From Myxococcales bacterium (GTDB lineage: Bacteria > Myxococcota_A > Polyangia > Polyangiales > DASUME01): a stretch of 64,000 bases of DNA. Position 1 is the first letter of the stretch, and each line of letters starts with the position of its first letter. The stretch is from positions 1,024,001-1,088,000 of the forward strand of contig JASGJH010000001.1 of the NCBI GenBank assembly GCA_047601445.1. The letters run 5' to 3'. Below the pieces are notes generated by a model. It did not search any database and was not told the DNA's origin. It saw nothing but the letters and a program-made list of their open reading frames with translations. The translations under genes and the position numbers were made by a program. Below are positions 6,008 to 11,283 of the stretch, piece after piece.

Positions 6008-6418
6008 ATGGCTTACTCAGACAAGGTCATCGACCACTACGAAAATCCCCGCAACGTCGGCACCCTCGACAAGAGCGACGAATCGGTCGGCACCGGCTTG
6101 GTGGGAGCACCGGCGTGCGGCGACGTGATGCGCCTGCAGCTGCGCATCAACCCCGAAACCGACGTTATCGAGGACGCCAAGTTCAAGACTTTCGGTTGCG
6201 GCAGCGCCATCGCCTCTTCCTCGCTCGTCACTGAGTGGGTCAAGGGCAAGACGGTGGACGAGGCCATGAAGCTGAAGAACACCCAGATCGTGGAGGAGCT
6301 CAACCTGCCTCCCGTGAAGATCCATTGCTCCGTGTTGGCCGAGGACGCCATCAAGAGCGCCATCGCCGACTTCCGCAAGAAGCAAGCGGAGCGTAGAGCC
6401 GCCTCCGAATCAAAGTGA
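6008..6418 (+). CDS. iscU: Fe-S scaffold IscU
   Basis: MAYSDKVIDHYENPRNVG, APACGD, FGCGSA, LPPVKIHC. Confidence 0.98.
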   Translation: MAYSDKVIDHYENPRNVGTLDKSDESVGTGLVGAPACGDVMRLQLRINPETDVIEDAKFKTFGCGSAIASSSLVTEWVKGKTVDEAMKLKNTQIVEELNLPPVKIHCSVLAEDAIKSAIADFRKKQAERRAASESK

Positions 6419-6864
6419 GTGAGGTCATGTCTCAGCCAGAGCCACAGAAGGTCGAAGCGCGCGCGCCCGCGCGGGTCGAGGCCCAGGATCCGCTCGCGGG
6501 CATCGAGGCCTTGGTGCCCGAGAACGTCGAGGGCACGCCTGACATCCGCCTCACCAAGAAGGCGGTGGAGATGGCCAAGAAGTCCATCGAGCGCCGTGGT
6601 GTGCCCACGGAGGGGCTGCGGCTGGGCGTGAAGGGCGGCGGCTGTTCGGGCGTTTCCTATGCCATCGAGTTCGCGGACAAGATTCGCGGGCGCGACCACG
6701 TGTTCGAGTTTCTGGGGCTCAAGGTGGTGGTCGACCCCAAGAGCCTCATCTATCTGCGCGGTTCCATCCTCGACTACGAAGTCAAGCTCATGCAGCACGG
6801 CTTCAAGTTCCGGAACCCCAACGAGAAGGCCGGCTGCGGCTGCGGCGAGTCCTTCACCGTATAG
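6415..6864 (+). CDS. iscA: A-type Fe-S carrier IscA/HesB
   Basis: GGGCSG and CGCGESF motifs; GTG overlaps the iscU stop (alternative ATG 6427). Confidence 0.95.
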   Translation: MSEVMSQPEPQKVEARAPARVEAQDPLAGIEALVPENVEGTPDIRLTKKAVEMAKKSIERRGVPTEGLRLGVKGGGCSGVSYAIEFADKIRGRDHVFEFLGLKVVVDPKSLIYLRGSILDYEVKLMQHGFKFRNPNEKAGCGCGESFTV

Positions 6865-6972
6865 CCCGTCGAGGGCGGCACAAAGGCTGCAATCATGATC
6901 CTTCGTGAGCGCAGCGAACCTCGCGGAGGGGGTGGGGCCCGCGTGACCTCCCCGCTGAAACCAGGGGACAGC

Positions 6973-7500
6973 ATGGATGCCTTCGATGTGCTGGCGCTCA
7001 AGCCTGCCTTTGATCTCGACCCAAGCGAGCTCGAGCAGCGCTATCGCGACCTGCAGAAGCAACTCCATCCGGACAAGTTCGTGCAAGCGTCCGCGAGCGA
7101 GAAGCGCGTCAGCTTGAGTCGGGCGGTCGACGTCAACCAGGCCTACCGATCCCTGCGTGACGCGCTCAAGCGCGGTGAGATCTTGCTGACTCGTCTGTCG
7201 GGCGTTCAAGCCGGCGCGGAGACCACGGATCCGGGGCTCTTGATGGAGATCATGGAGCTGCGCGAAGGCCTGGCGGAGGCCAAGGGCGAGCGCAACGCGG
7301 CTGCCGTGAGTGCGCTCAAGGCCGACGTGCTCACACGGGAAGACGGCGCACTCGGCTCACTGAAGCAAGCCTTCCAGGTGCTCGAGCGAGGCCCGGACGG
7401 TGCGGCGCGCGCAGAAGCCCATCGCGCGCTGTCACGACTGCGCTATTACCGGCGCTTCCAGGAAGAAGTCGCGCGCTTCGAAGAGGAGACAGCGGAGTAA
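6973..7500 (+). CDS. hscB: Fe-S co-chaperone HscB
   Basis: J-domain LHPDKF, LMEIMELRE, RLRYY; ATG 6973 follows AGGGGA. Confidence 0.93.
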   Translation: MDAFDVLALKPAFDLDPSELEQRYRDLQKQLHPDKFVQASASEKRVSLSRAVDVNQAYRSLRDALKRGEILLTRLSGVQAGAETTDPGLLMEIMELREGLAEAKGERNAAAVSALKADVLTREDGALGSLKQAFQVLERGPDGAARAEAHRALSRLRYYRRFQEEVARFEEETAE

Positions 7501-7503
7501 GTC

Positions 7504-9450
7504 ATGGCCCTGCTTCAGATACACGACCCTCAGGCACAGAAGACGCCGATCGGGATCGATCTGGGCACCACCAATAGCTTGATCGCCCACGTGACCGCCA
7601 CCGGCACGCCAGCGACCATCCTCGACTGCGACAACGAGGCCCTGGTGCCGTCGGTGGTGCACTACGGGAAGGATGGCCGGGTGTTGGTGGGCAAGGACGC
7701 GCTCGCGCTGGCCGAGAGCTTCCCCGAGGACACCATCATCAGCGTGAAGCGCTTCATGGGGCGCGGCGCGGGTGATCCGGAGACGCGCAAGCTCGGCCCG
7801 TATCGCTTCGCGACCAACGAAGGTCCCGTGGTGAAGCTCGACGTAGCCAAGTCACGCGTGGTGACCCCGGTGGAGGTGAGCGCGGAGATCCTCGCGTTTC
7901 TGCGCGAGCAGGCCGAGGACTCGCTGGGCGGGGTAGGGGGCGCGGTGATCACGGTGCCCGCGTACTTCGACGATGCTCAACGCCAGGCCACCAAGGACGC
8001 CGGACGCCTGGCCGGTCTCGACGTGCTGCGCCTGCTCAACGAGCCCACGGCCGCCGCGCTCGCGTACGGCCTCCAGGAGAAGCAGAACGGCACCTTCGCC
8101 GTGTACGATCTCGGAGGCGGGACCTTCGACGTGACCATCCTGTCGCTCGAGGACGGCGTCTTTCAGGTGCGCTCCACGGGCGGCGATAGTCAGCTCGGCG
8201 GCGACGACATCGACCGCGCTTTGGCCCACGTGTTCCTCGAGCAGATGGGTTACGACAGCGAGGCAGCCCTGCCGGCCAGCTTGGTGCGACACCTGATCCA
8301 GTCCGCCAAGGCGGTGAAGCACGCGCTCACCCACGCGGACAGCGTGGAGGCCGAGATCGAGCGCCCGGACGGCTCGACCTTCGTGCGTGGCGTGACCCGC
8401 GCAGAGCTCGACGCGCTGGTGAAGCCCCTGGCGCAGCGCACGGGTACCGCCTGCCGGCGTGCCCTCAGGGACGCTGGGTTCGAGGCCAAGGACCTCGACG
8501 GTGTGATCCTGGTGGGCGGGTCCACGCGGGTCCCGTTCATTCGCAACTACGTCAAGGAGCTGTTCGGCAAGGAGCCGCTCGACTCGCTCGATCCGGATCA
8601 GGTGGTCGCCCTGGGGGCCGCCATCCAAGCGGATTTGTTGGCGGGTACGGGACCCAAGCATGAGGTCCTCCTGCTCGACGTGATCCCGCTCTCCCTCGGC
8701 ATCGAGACCATGGGCGGCGTGGCGGAGAAAATCCTACCGCGCAACTCCCCCATCCCCGCGGCCCAGGCCCAGGAATTCACCACCTACGCCGACAACCAAA
8801 CCGGTTTCGAGCTCCACGTGGTGCAGGGCGAGCGCGAGCTGGCCCAGGACTGTCGTTCGCTGGCGCGCTTCACGCTCAAGGGCATCCCGCCCATGCCCGC
8901 AGGTCTGCCGCGGCTGCGCGTGACGTTTCGCGTGGACGCGGACGGCCTGCTCAAGGTGGAAGCCGAAGAGAAGACCACGGGCACGCGCCAGGAAGTCGAA
9001 GTGAAGCCGAGCTACGGGCTCACCGACGACGAGGTCGAGCGCATGTTGCTCGATGCCTACGAGCACGGTGAAGAAGATGTGAAGCTTCGGCGCTTGCGCG
9101 AGGAGCAGGTCGACGCGCAGCGCATCCTGGCGTCGCTCGAGCAGGCCATCGAACGCGACCGCGAGTTACTCACGGACGAGGAGGAGCGAGCGGATATCGA
9201 GGGCGCCATTCGGCGGCTCAAGCGCGCGTTGGCCGGCCAGGACTACGACGAGATCCACAATCGCATCGAAGACCTCGACCAAGCCTCGAAGGCCTTCGCC
9301 GGGCGCCGCATGGACCGCAGCATCGCCCAGGCGCTGGCCGGGCGCGCGGCCTCGCAACTTGAAGACGAAACCAAGACCGCGCGCGGGATCGAGCCCCACC
9401 TGGGGCACAGTCCGTCTTCCGACGACGGGCCCAGTTCGGAGAAGCACTGA
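7504..9450 (+). CDS. hscA: Fe-S chaperone HscA (Hsp70 family)
   Basis: MALLQIHDP start, GIDLGTTNS, DLGGGTFD, KPSYGL; located in the isc operon. Confidence 0.96.
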   Translation: MALLQIHDPQAQKTPIGIDLGTTNSLIAHVTATGTPATILDCDNEALVPSVVHYGKDGRVLVGKDALALAESFPEDTIISVKRFMGRGAGDPETRKLGPYRFATNEGPVVKLDVAKSRVVTPVEVSAEILAFLREQAEDSLGGVGGAVITVPAYFDDAQRQATKDAGRLAGLDVLRLLNEPTAAALAYGLQEKQNGTFAVYDLGGGTFDVTILSLEDGVFQVRSTGGDSQLGGDDIDRALAHVFLEQMGYDSEAALPASLVRHLIQSAKAVKHALTHADSVEAEIERPDGSTFVRGVTRAELDALVKPLAQRTGTACRRALRDAGFEAKDLDGVILVGGSTRVPFIRNYVKELFGKEPLDSLDPDQVVALGAAIQADLLAGTGPKHEVLLLDVIPLSLGIETMGGVAEKILPRNSPIPAAQAQEFTTYADNQTGFELHVVQGERELAQDCRSLARFTLKGIPPMPAGLPRLRVTFRVDADGLLKVEAEEKTTGTRQEVEVKPSYGLTDDEVERMLLDAYEHGEEDVKLRRLREEQVDAQRILASLEQAIERDRELLTDEEERADIEGAIRRLKRALAGQDYDEIHNRIEDLDQASKAFAGRRMDRSIAQALAGRAASQLEDETKTARGIEPHLGHSPSSDDGPSSEKH

Positions 9451-9815
9451 TGCCGAAAGTACGTTTCCTGCGGGAGAATCTCGAGGTCGAGATCGAACCT
9501 GGCCAAACCATCCTCGAAGCCGCCAAGAAGGCCGGCGCACCCGAGGGCGACCGCTGCGGTGGTGTTTGCGCTTGCTCCACCTGCCACGTCTACGTGACCA
9601 AGGGCTTCGACTCGCTCTCGGAGATCGAAGACGAAGAGTTCGACATCCTCGACAAGGCCTTCGATGTTCGCAGCACGAGCCGCCTCGGCTGTCAGGCCAA
9701 GGTGGAGGGCGACGGGGACATCGAGGTGGAAATCAGCGGCGAGAGTTTCCAGGCCTTCGTGGACGAGCACCCGGACCAGAAGGCCCGCGCTCTGGCCATG
9801 CGGCCCCCCAAGTGA
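9450..9815 (+). CDS. fdx: ISC-type [2Fe-2S] ferredoxin
   Basis: CGGVCACSTCH...SRLGCQ; ATG overlaps the hscA stop. Confidence 0.95.
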   Translation: MPKVRFLRENLEVEIEPGQTILEAAKKAGAPEGDRCGGVCACSTCHVYVTKGFDSLSEIEDEEFDILDKAFDVRSTSRLGCQAKVEGDGDIEVEISGESFQAFVDEHPDQKARALAMRPPK

Positions 9816-10027
9816 GCGTTGGGCACCTAGCGGGGACTCGCGGCGCGCACGCCGAGCCCCGAACGTCCCGGGACTGAGGGCTGGCGGCGGGACGGTTTCG
9901 GCTCCGGGCTGCCGCTGCAGCGCTCCCCGGGCCCCACGGGGCTGTCGAGAATGACGAGGATTTTCAGAGATCTAACCCGGCCGGGCTGGAACCTACGGCC
10001 AGTCCGCTCGATAAGCGCGACGACGAC

Positions 10028-10056
10028 TTGAACTTTCCGAGTCCATCCCGTAACTT
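10028..10056 (+). promoter_or_regulatory. Sigma70-like promoter of the tRNA unit
   Basis: TTGAAC-N17-TAACTT ending 11 nt before the tRNA 5' end. Confidence 0.65.
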
Positions 10057-10067
10057 CCGCCGCCCAA

Positions 10068-10144
10068 GGGCGGTTAGCTCAGCTGGATAGAGCATCGGCC
10101 TCCGGAGCCGAGGGTCACAGGTTCGAATCTTGTACCGCCCGCCA
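10068..10144 (+). tRNA. tRNA-Arg (anticodon CCG)
   Basis: Acceptor stem GGGCGGT/ACCGCCC, D arm GCTC/GAGC, anticodon arm TCGGC-CTCCGGA-GCCGA, T loop TTCGAAT, encoded CCA. Confidence 0.97.
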
Positions 10145-10214
10145 GTCTTTTGAAGTTCGAAGCACGCGCTCCGGCGCGTGAGCAACACGAGGAACCCGCA
10201 ACATGTACCTGCAT

Positions 10215-10331
10215 ATGCCCCGCAGCCAGAAGCGTGACCGCAAGGTCTCCAACCGTTACAGCGCCAAGCTCAAGGCGAAGAACCGCCGCCGGGTCAACCG
10301 TATGCAGGGCCGCCGCCTCTCCAAGGCCTGA
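10215..10331 (+). CDS. Small Lys/Arg-rich protein, 38 aa (42 aa from in-frame ATG 10203); not in the ORF track
   Basis: MPRSQKRDRKVSNRYSAKLKAKNRRRVNRMQGRRLSKA; all sense codons end in G/C except three CGT; GAGG at 10189-10192; terminator downstream. Confidence 0.75.
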   Translation: MPRSQKRDRKVSNRYSAKLKAKNRRRVNRMQGRRLSKA

Positions 10332-10339
10332 GCAACGCT

Positions 10340-10361
10340 CCTCGCAAATGCGCGAGGTTTT
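10340..10361 (+). terminator. Probable intrinsic terminator
   Basis: CCTCGC-AAATGC-GCGAGG followed by TTTT. Confidence 0.6.
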
Positions 10362-10440
10362 CGTGGTTTAGCTCCCCTAAGTACGGGCTGACATCCCGCA
10401 ATCCTTGGGCCCTCGAGTCCATGGCGGTAGAGTCAGTGGG

Positions 10441-11283
10441 GTGAGCGAGAAATCCATCTTCGTCGTCAGCGACTCGACCGGTGAGACTGCCGAGCGAGTC
10501 GTGCGCGCTGCCTTGGTGCAGTTTCCGAGTCACCGCGCCCGTGTGCGGCTGTTCACGCGGATTCGCGACCGTGAGGCGGTCACCGACGTGGTGAAGCGGG
10601 CCGCCGAGGCCAAGGCCATGGTGGTGTACACCTTGGTGGGCAGCGAGCTCCGTCAGTACTGCTACGACCTGGCGTTGCAGCATGATGTCGAGGCGGTGGA
10701 CGTCATTGGGGCTTTGATCGGCAAGGTGAGCACCTTCCTGGGTGAGCTGCCACTGGGCGCCCCCACGCTCACGCAACCGCTCTCGGAGGAGTACTTCCGG
10801 CGCGTGGAGGCCATCGAGTTCGCCGTCAAAAGCGACGATGGCAAGGAGCCCCGCAACCTGCGGAAGTGCGACCTGGTGTTGGTCGGCGTGAGTCGCACCA
10901 GCAAGACGCCCCTCTCCACCTACCTGGCCGGGCGCGGACTCAAGGTGGCCAACGTGCCGCTCGTGCTGGGCGTGCCGCCGCCCGAAGAGCTACTCGAGGT
11001 GCACAGGGACCGGGTCGTCGGTCTTACCATCGAGATCGAACAGTTGATGGAGATCCGGATGGCCCGGCTACGCCAGCTAGGGATGCCCACGGACACCAAC
11101 TACGGGGCGCGTGCCCACATCCAGGAAGAGCTGGATTTTGCCCAGAAGATCTACGACGAACGCGGCTGGTTCGAGGTGGACGTGAGCGGGCGCGCCATCG
11201 AGGAGACGGCCACCATCATCCTCGAGCATTACAAGGAGCTCGACGAGGTGCGCGCAGGGGCCAACGCCTTGCTGCGAGCCTGA
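10441..11283 (+). CDS. PEP synthase/PPDK regulatory kinase/pyrophosphorylase (DUF299 family)
   Basis: VSDSTGETA, YFRRVEAIEFA, DDGK, GVSRTSKTPLSTYLA, AIEETA; start uncertain (GTG 10441). Confidence 0.93.
   Translation: MSEKSIFVVSDSTGETAERVVRAALVQFPSHRARVRLFTRIRDREAVTDVVKRAAEAKAMVVYTLVGSELRQYCYDLALQHDVEAVDVIGALIGKVSTFLGELPLGAPTLTQPLSEEYFRRVEAIEFAVKSDDGKEPRNLRKCDLVLVGVSRTSKTPLSTYLAGRGLKVANVPLVLGVPPPEELLEVHRDRVVGLTIEIEQLMEIRMARLRQLGMPTDTNYGARAHIQEELDFAQKIYDERGWFEVDVSGRAIEETATIILEHYKELDEVRAGANALLRA

Follow-up and report, generated by a model that had tools for sequence, protein, structure and literature searches.

The ribosomal protein bTHX is a very small basic peptide buried in rRNA. Another peptide of this sort is eL41, and bS22 and bL38, both previously unannotated, were found by cryo-EM together with their pockets (PMC10618245). 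For bS22 (33 aa, pI 12.75) and bL37 (24 aa, pI 12.02), no growth defect on deletion is reported (PMC10081302). The bL38 protein of Bacteroidia and Borrelia, which is about 5.6 kDa and ubiquitous in a class, was also found by cryo-EM, is made of a beta-hairpin and a helix, and is encoded in a ribosomal operon behind bL28 and bL33 (PMC11851116).

Here we analyzed a microprotein gene of a Myxococcales bacterium, located in a window of 64,000 nucleotides (the whole stretch of DNA that was analyzed). The finding is broader than first noted, in that the gene belongs to a core microprotein family of Myxococcota and its link to a tRNA is local. Our literature search, covering few subscription journals, found no description of this family, members of which may be listed in supplementary catalogues, and within the same coverage it found no myxobacterial ribosome structure, ribosome study or proteome.

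Organisation of the locus and coding evidence

As shown in Table 1, the tRNA-ORF unit is flanked by an isc operon, whose last gene encodes a ferredoxin, and by a PpsR gene. The tRNA-Arg(CCG) gene proposed by the earlier note was called by both ARAGORN and Rfam, and Rfam returned this tRNA only, with sRNA-Xcc1 lying under the gathering score at an E of 0.16. The GAGG seen before the ORF is part of a GAGGAA motif, and the ORF end, the 16 Lys/Arg residues and the one acidic residue were all confirmed in the sequence. The proposed length of 38 aa, however, is replaced by 42 aa, because the start at 10203 lies 8 nt after the Shine-Dalgarno (SD) motif and in the register M/V-[YF]-[LIV] that is common to 20 of 20 loci found with the 38-aa query. 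SD-like motifs were present in 92 of 134 distinct homologue upstream regions.

Table 1. Coordinates of the features discussed (window positions, or contig C1 of the window genome, G000, where marked)
Feature	Coordinates	Strand	Support
iscU-iscA-hscB-hscA-fdx iron-sulfur cluster operon (upstream context)	6008..9815	+	Pfam
Putative sigma70-type promoter of the tRNA-ORF unit: TTGAAC 10028-10033, 17 nt, TAACTT 10051-10056	10028..10063	+	
Discriminator: 7 nt, all G+C, after the -10 hexamer TAACTT	within 10028..10063	+	
tRNA-Arg(CCG), CCA end encoded	10068..10144	+	ARAGORN; Rfam RF00005, 64.2 bits
tRNA-ORF spacer hairpin: 6-bp, G+C-rich, UCCG loop	10164..10179	+	RNAfold
Shine-Dalgarno GAGGAA, 8 nt from ATG 10203	10189..10194	+	
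Microprotein ORF, 42 aa	10203..10331	+	Homologues, dN/dS, AlphaFold2
Possible intrinsic terminator, weak: 6-bp stem (hairpin 10340-10357) and T-rich tail	10340..10367	+	
PpsR/PDRP kinase-pyrophosphorylase gene (downstream context)	10441..11283	+	PF03618, E 3.8e-91
Small basic ORF L341	G000:C1:1582398-1582511	-	
Small basic ORF L342	G000:C1:6038911-6039006	-	
Small basic ORF L343	G000:C1:3020320-3020454	+	
Histone-H1-like protein L344	G000:C1:2739275-2739427	-	
Histone-H1-like protein L345	G000:C1:3774708-3774920	-	

Both hexamers of the promoter TTGAAC-N17-TAACTT are present, but they match the consensus at 7 of 12 bases, which is below the promoter-scanner threshold. The hairpin and T-run after the ORF also exist, but as a terminator they are no better than chance, with one site found against 1.1 expected and a z of -1.02 against shuffles; terminator-like sites follow only 18 of 137 homologue genes. 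The hairpin in the spacer may shield part of the mRNA once the tRNA has been processed, and it is not a feature of the family, since the spacer differs across the genus both in length (24–58 nt) and in sequence.

The ORF is a genuine protein-coding gene under purifying selection, far beyond chance. Its nearest relative differs from it by 13 synonymous and two non-synonymous changes, the pooled dN/dS over 22 non-overlapping pairs is 0.12, and mismatches within the genus fall at codon positions 1, 2 and 3 in the proportion 303/232/655. The homologue search and dN/dS check that the earlier note had suggested thus returned in-frame homologues in Myxococcota under purifying selection. The codon usage, described there as strongly host-biased, is only modestly so: GC3 is 0.90 against 0.85, and in the window genome the ribosomal-like codon score, referred to 26 ribosomal-protein genes, stands at the 95.6th percentile, with an amino-acid-matched test giving P=0.024 against the genome average and P=0.34 against the ribosomal set. 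Among the homologues the codon signal is weak: at 58 of 99 loci the gene scored above its neighbours, with the table of the window genome as reference.

Distribution and anatomy of the family

The single 38-aa query gave matches in 29 of 41 related genomes, including nine of nine from the genus, and in a set of 48 further Polyangiales genomes profile A1 matched 47 and profile A2 all 48. Exactly one match to the family profile was obtained in each of 111 Polyangiales genomes ranging from 1.8 to 12 Mb in size, all at least 95% complete and 53 of them (G331–G383) absent from profile building. The family is therefore an unnamed core gene, single-copy and universal in the Polyangiales genomes examined, and this count and the dN/dS strongly support the claim that the microprotein is real, conserved and basic. 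With outward iteration (profiles A3–A5) and an E limit of 0.001, homologues were found in 161 genomes of the 300 sampled from the phylum, 157 of them counted first and four added by later profile searches. The two extremes of the family remain alignable with each other (hhalign 95%). Most of the weak phylum matches were inspected by reading and proved to be short ORFs that have a start and carry the family core; eight with no start or no core motif were dropped (L159, L160, L274, L276, L278, L280, L299 and L300), one genome with an internal stop (G143) was excluded from the union, and six loci whose start could not be placed or which were cut by a contig end (L154, L166, L219, L250, L254 and L269) were excluded from the family statistics.

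Across the phylum, presence is mostly all-or-none by taxonomic family. No match at E up to 0.001 was found in the families f33 (26 genomes), f36 (22), f43 (13) and f65 (10), nor in 10 genomes from other orders of the same class, and in total these profiles did not find the family in about 139 of the 300 phylum genomes, which does not prove its absence there. No relative was found in viral contigs, phages or plasmids. In the protein database, A2 retrieved 1550 sequences at E up to 1; the 120 matches listed are unnamed or called 'hypothetical protein', and many database versions bear N-terminal extensions owing to a wrong start. One genome (G306) holds two near-identical copies on separate contigs (L172 and L085), the sole duplicate confirmed by reading and possibly a result of bin contamination. 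Another (G125) is a strongly reduced myxobacterial genome, a single contig of 1.8 Mb that is 96% complete and belongs to Polyangiales; it keeps the gene (L122) beside queD, with about 48% G+C at the locus.

The microprotein of the window has a mass of 5.2 kDa and a pI of about 12, with Lys/Arg making up 38% of the residues and one Asp as its only acidic residue. The 227 distinct members have a median length of 43 aa (35–63), 43% Lys+Arg and a mean of 0.7 acidic residues, and share a basic helix core, R-x-x-A-K-L-K-A-K, between variable, clade-specific tails. Conservation across these members reaches 77% at R13, 95% at R18, 96% at A21, 86% at K22, 81% at L23, 89% at K24, 88% at A25, 99% at K26 and 88% at R33. 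AlphaFold2 models the window microprotein as one helix (residues 17–32) with extended tails at a mean pLDDT of 82.5, and a member of a distant clade is predicted to have the same helix and a short C-terminal hairpin. On a helical wheel R18, A21, A25 and R28 fall inside 80 degrees, and near-invariant Ala, Arg and Lys are predicted to lie on one side of the core helix; small residues with flanking arginines on one face would suit packing into an RNA groove, as this arrangement suggests.

Database comparisons gave no name to the family. Neither Pfam nor NCBIfam gave a significant match to the ORF or to alignments A1–A5, the PDB sequence search had no match for the ORF or A2 and otherwise gave a non-significant one to USP16 (E 0.27), and Foldseek found no match for the model. 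VIA-align gave a best Z of 2.9, and as the model is one small helix, fold search is uninformative. Each of two ESM Atlas queries returned 30 near clusters with no Pfam family, the named leads scoring 0.79 or below.

Two other roles for a basic helical peptide may be weighed against this anatomy. A DNA-binding peptide, whether nucleoid-compacting in the manner of protamine or histone H1 or associated with RNA polymerase, would share the high Lys+Arg content, the single acidic residue and the pI, and weak matches to Tlp, a small acid-soluble spore protein, occurred in 4 of 55 members (best E 0.026) and in 1 of 55 (E 0.011). However, the Tlp matches are not significant, the conservation is position-specific (fixed Ala, Leu and Asn/His) with no low-complexity repeat, and the window genome has two separate histone-H1-like proteins, so we regard such a role as rather unlikely; the protamine-like reading offered by the earlier note fits less well because the conservation is not compositional. 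Those two proteins are Lys/Ala-repeat proteins of 51 and 71 aa with no Pfam match (Table 1). A predatory function, as an antimicrobial or membrane-active cationic peptide, would suit the short, cationic and helical microprotein, but it is most improbable here, given strong purifying selection, a strict single copy with no expansion, retention in genomes of 1.8–3 Mb, and the finding that none of the sequences read has a signal peptide or a hydrophobic segment.

Transcription and gene neighbourhood

The tRNA-Arg(CCG) gene lies 24–58 nt upstream in seven genomes of the genus by ARAGORN and in an eighth where it is cut by a contig end, making eight of ten, while the other two lack it; beyond the genus it is found directly upstream at only one locus (L048), at a distance of 135 nt. 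The idea of one unit with the tRNA therefore fits the genus, where contigs from RNA libraries also join the two genes, but does not hold for the family as a whole. Among the 57 ARAGORN calls of the window genome, tRNA-Arg is represented by two CCG genes and one each of TCG, ACG, CCT and TCT.

Of 17 RNA libraries, none of which reached a share of 0.1, four were examined. In three studies the tRNA and the ORF are joined on short contigs from relatives: a record of 308 nt (X8, record 24) spans 10067–10345, a second (X5, record 23) spans 10111–10307, and a third (X3, record 9) contains the tRNA, an 18-nt spacer and the ORF and continues into ppsR, while a fourth (X10, record 7) holds the ORF alone. 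The X3 and X8 contigs both end at 10067, adjoining the 5′ end of the tRNA. These contigs come from other strains, are strandless and may derive from DNA, so they agree with a tRNA-ORF transcript and are no demonstration of it. Zero RNA depth at 9840–10047 was set aside, since the intergenic DNA of relatives would not align.

The neighbours differ by clade, the sets being ppsR, a cNMP protein and panC; mglAB, RNase E/G, recX and queD; tgt, an acyl-CoA dehydrogenase and purM; and malQ and dacA. The isc operon is upstream in part of the family only, and none of 86 neighbour proteins scanned is ribosomal. A cis-acting leader peptide, sensing Arg/Lys charging or ribosome stalling and controlling the gene behind it (ppsR in the window), could be suspected from an Arg-rich ORF following an Arg tRNA, from the hairpin past the stop codon, and from ppsR directly following the gene at 33 of 103 loci. 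Nevertheless, 42 of the 103 loci have their next gene on the other strand, this gene varies by clade while the core stays fixed, and the ORF has a single CGG codon, the one that tRNA-Arg(CCG) reads, leaving this role very unlikely.

The putative promoter of the tRNA-ORF unit gains support from the closest relative (L021), where it is nearly identical, and from the recurrence of its pattern at 14 of the 57 tRNA genes of the genome. Among 135 loci, 20 have the strict pattern TTG-N19-21-TANNNT upstream, where shuffled sequences gave 3.0 and the opposite strand one. With the tRNA loci removed, 27 of 224 carry it, compared with 249 of 5088 genes of the window genome; kin are not independent in these counts, so that P values make the difference look stronger than it is. 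Only one of five upstream regions of ribosomal-protein genes examined in that genome has the strict pattern. Discriminator G+C is 0.80 at the non-tRNA loci, against 0.68 for genes of the window genome and 0.87 for its tRNA promoters. A TA between positions -18 and -14 relative to the start codon was observed in 26 of 36 homologues lacking an SD and in 7 of 98 with one, and as this position equals the spacing of leaderless transcripts, it supports the start assignment independently. Loci lacking an SD whose -35/-10 elements are set for a start at or just before the ATG include L046, L051, L053, L054, L080–L083, L091, L097, L099, L103, L105, L107, L115, L116, L118, L119, L121, L161 and L174. Read from these upstream sequences, the mRNA would often be leaderless in Polyangiaceae-like and other Myxococcota genomes, and outside the genus the gene appears to stand mostly alone behind its own sigma70-type promoter, with either SD-led or leaderless translation.

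The same observations bear on the possibility of a non-stoichiometric factor that associates with ribosomes or RNA (in assembly, in hibernation, or as a tRNA or mRNA chaperone), using the same helix and forming no permanent part of a subunit. Such a factor could show the same sequence features and universal retention, its co-transcription with a tRNA in the genus agrees with the RNA contigs, and RNase E/G or tgt genes are adjacent in some clades. Under stringent control, a G+C-rich discriminator marks growth-linked synthesis. The housekeeping promoter, with a discriminator G+C-rich like those of tRNA promoters, would thus point away from stationary-phase synthesis, and no match to the factor families of Pfam or NCBIfam was found; we consider this role unlikely.

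Comparison with small ribosomal proteins

The family resembles bS22/mS38/COX24 (PF08213, DUF1713) in being small, Lys/Arg-rich, helical and often unannotated (PMC10618245, PMC10081302). However, no member scanned matched the bS22 profile, and hhalign gave 3.4% and 0.3%. Canonical bS22 was detected clade-wise in 70 of 301 phylum genomes, with none found in the window genome or in 48 Polyangiales genomes, and 52 of the 70 also carry the microprotein, a co-occurrence that rules out an orthologue or replacement of bS22 and disfavours the bS22 pocket (h27/h44/h45 of 16S rRNA) for the microprotein.

The actinobacterial bL37 (NF047428) is likewise a tiny, helical, lineage-restricted ribosomal protein with a pI of about 12 (PMC10081302), but its 24 aa contrast with the family median of 43, the microprotein has no NCBIfam match, and the bL37 model found nothing in the window genome or 80 phylum genomes. 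Its pocket lies at 23S H39-H42/H89 next to uL30. In 26 loci read, uL30 has no N-terminal extension, and a bL37-type pocket beside it may be free, a suggestion drawn from uL30 sequences that says nothing on occupancy. uL30 itself had no match in 3 of 30 genomes, namely both f36 genomes in the set (G048 and G134) and its one f43 genome (G059), from families that also gave no microprotein match.

In contrast to bL38, the microprotein is not in a ribosomal operon and has no rpmB-rpmG neighbour among the genes scanned. The fold of bL38 combines a beta-hairpin with a helix; for the microprotein one helix is predicted in Polyangiales, with a C-terminal hairpin predicted only in the distant clade, and fold searches with so small a model say little on this point. 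bL34 and bL35 are similar in size and charge and superficially resemble the core helix. A divergent bL34 was ruled out, as the window genome has its own bL34 (hhalign 0.9%), and so was bL35, for which the genome again has its own copy (0.5%); a match to plant mitochondrial bL35m in the PDB (19–20 residues, E 0.003–0.05) was dropped after the latter comparison. Canonical genes elsewhere in the genome also exclude identity with, or replacement of, bL36, bS21 and uS14. For bTHX (PF17070), the microprotein gave no profile match, none was found in the window genome, and 0 of 80 phylum genomes passed the cut-off; eL41 (PF05162) gave no Pfam match and only an Atlas lead at 0.77. The distributions of bL37, bTHX and an extended uL30 say nothing about complementarity with the family, as all are absent on both sides. 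In the S10-spc-alpha cluster of the window genome (C1, 6626778–6645622) no uL3 ORF separates uS10 from uL4, and uL5 and uS8 have no uS14 between them; uS14 stands alone at 8598771–8598932.

The earlier note had likened the protein to lineage-specific small ribosomal proteins, naming bS22, bTHX and bL37 for HMM comparison. Membership of any of the three is not borne out, while the general likeness is the reading that we favour: at a probability of roughly 0.6, the microprotein is an undescribed lineage-specific small ribosomal protein that binds rRNA. This reading fits best because the protein is strictly single-copy and clade-universal, is modelled as a basic helix of about 5 kDa conserved position by position, and has a promoter of the stable-RNA type and no genes of a pathway beside it. 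With small ribosomal proteins it shares a length under 60 aa, strong basicity and a helical or extended form, as well as single copy across the clade (111/111) and purifying selection (dN/dS 0.12). Also in favour are its retention even in the 1.8-Mb genome, the all-or-none pattern by family across the phylum, the finding of no relatives in viral contigs, phages or plasmids, the ribosomal-like codon usage in the window genome, the promoter pattern and G+C-rich discriminator at loci lacking the tRNA, a size and charge like those given for bS22 and bL37 (PMC10081302), and the precedent of unannotated small ribosomal proteins that only cryo-EM brought to light (PMC10618245). Against it count the location outside any ribosomal operon with neighbours that shift by clade, unlike bL38 (PMC11851116), the lack of significant similarity to solved ribosomal proteins, the nearly half of phylum genomes in which the family was not found, the weak codon signal in homologues, and the strict promoter pattern at only one of five ribosomal-protein upstream regions; moreover, nucleic-acid binders of other kinds are likewise small, basic and conserved. 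A rough prior comes from the 11 best-coding small basic ORFs of the window genome, of which four are ribosomal (bL33, bL34, bL35 and bL36) and two are Lys/Ala repeats. Three more small basic ORFs of this genome (L341–L343; 38, 32 and 45 aa) have good coding scores and no Pfam match, two of them with a clear SD, and are further candidates of the same kind.

As a ribosomal protein, the microprotein would dock its helix in an rRNA pocket, where the small Ala residues would permit close packing and Lys/Arg would neutralise phosphates, and its variable tails would thread along the RNA as in bS22, bL37 and eL41. Its synthesis, from a promoter of the stable-RNA type, would go along with that of the translation machinery; in the genus, the gene behind tRNA-Arg(CCG) would use the tRNA promoter, and tRNA processing would release the mRNA. 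More tentatively, at somewhat short of an even chance, it is a new ribosomal protein ancestral to much of Myxococcota, lost in some lineages and occupying a pocket distinct from those of bS22, bL37, bL38 and bTHX.

Whatever its function, the family is an unnamed core gene, recorded at most as 'hypothetical protein' and often with a wrong start, and encodes a housekeeping microprotein found in much of Myxococcota. It also presents one gene whose expression alternates among SD-led, leaderless and tRNA-cotranscribed modes. Most lineage-specific small ribosomal proteins were discovered by chance in cryo-EM density, as in the reports on bS22, bL37 and bL38 (PMC10618245, PMC10081302, PMC11851116); this family provides a candidate defined from sequence, for a phylum in which we found no ribosome study. 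If the more tentative reading is true, the universal retention in Polyangiales would mean that their ribosomes rely on a part that no bacterial ribosome solved so far contains.
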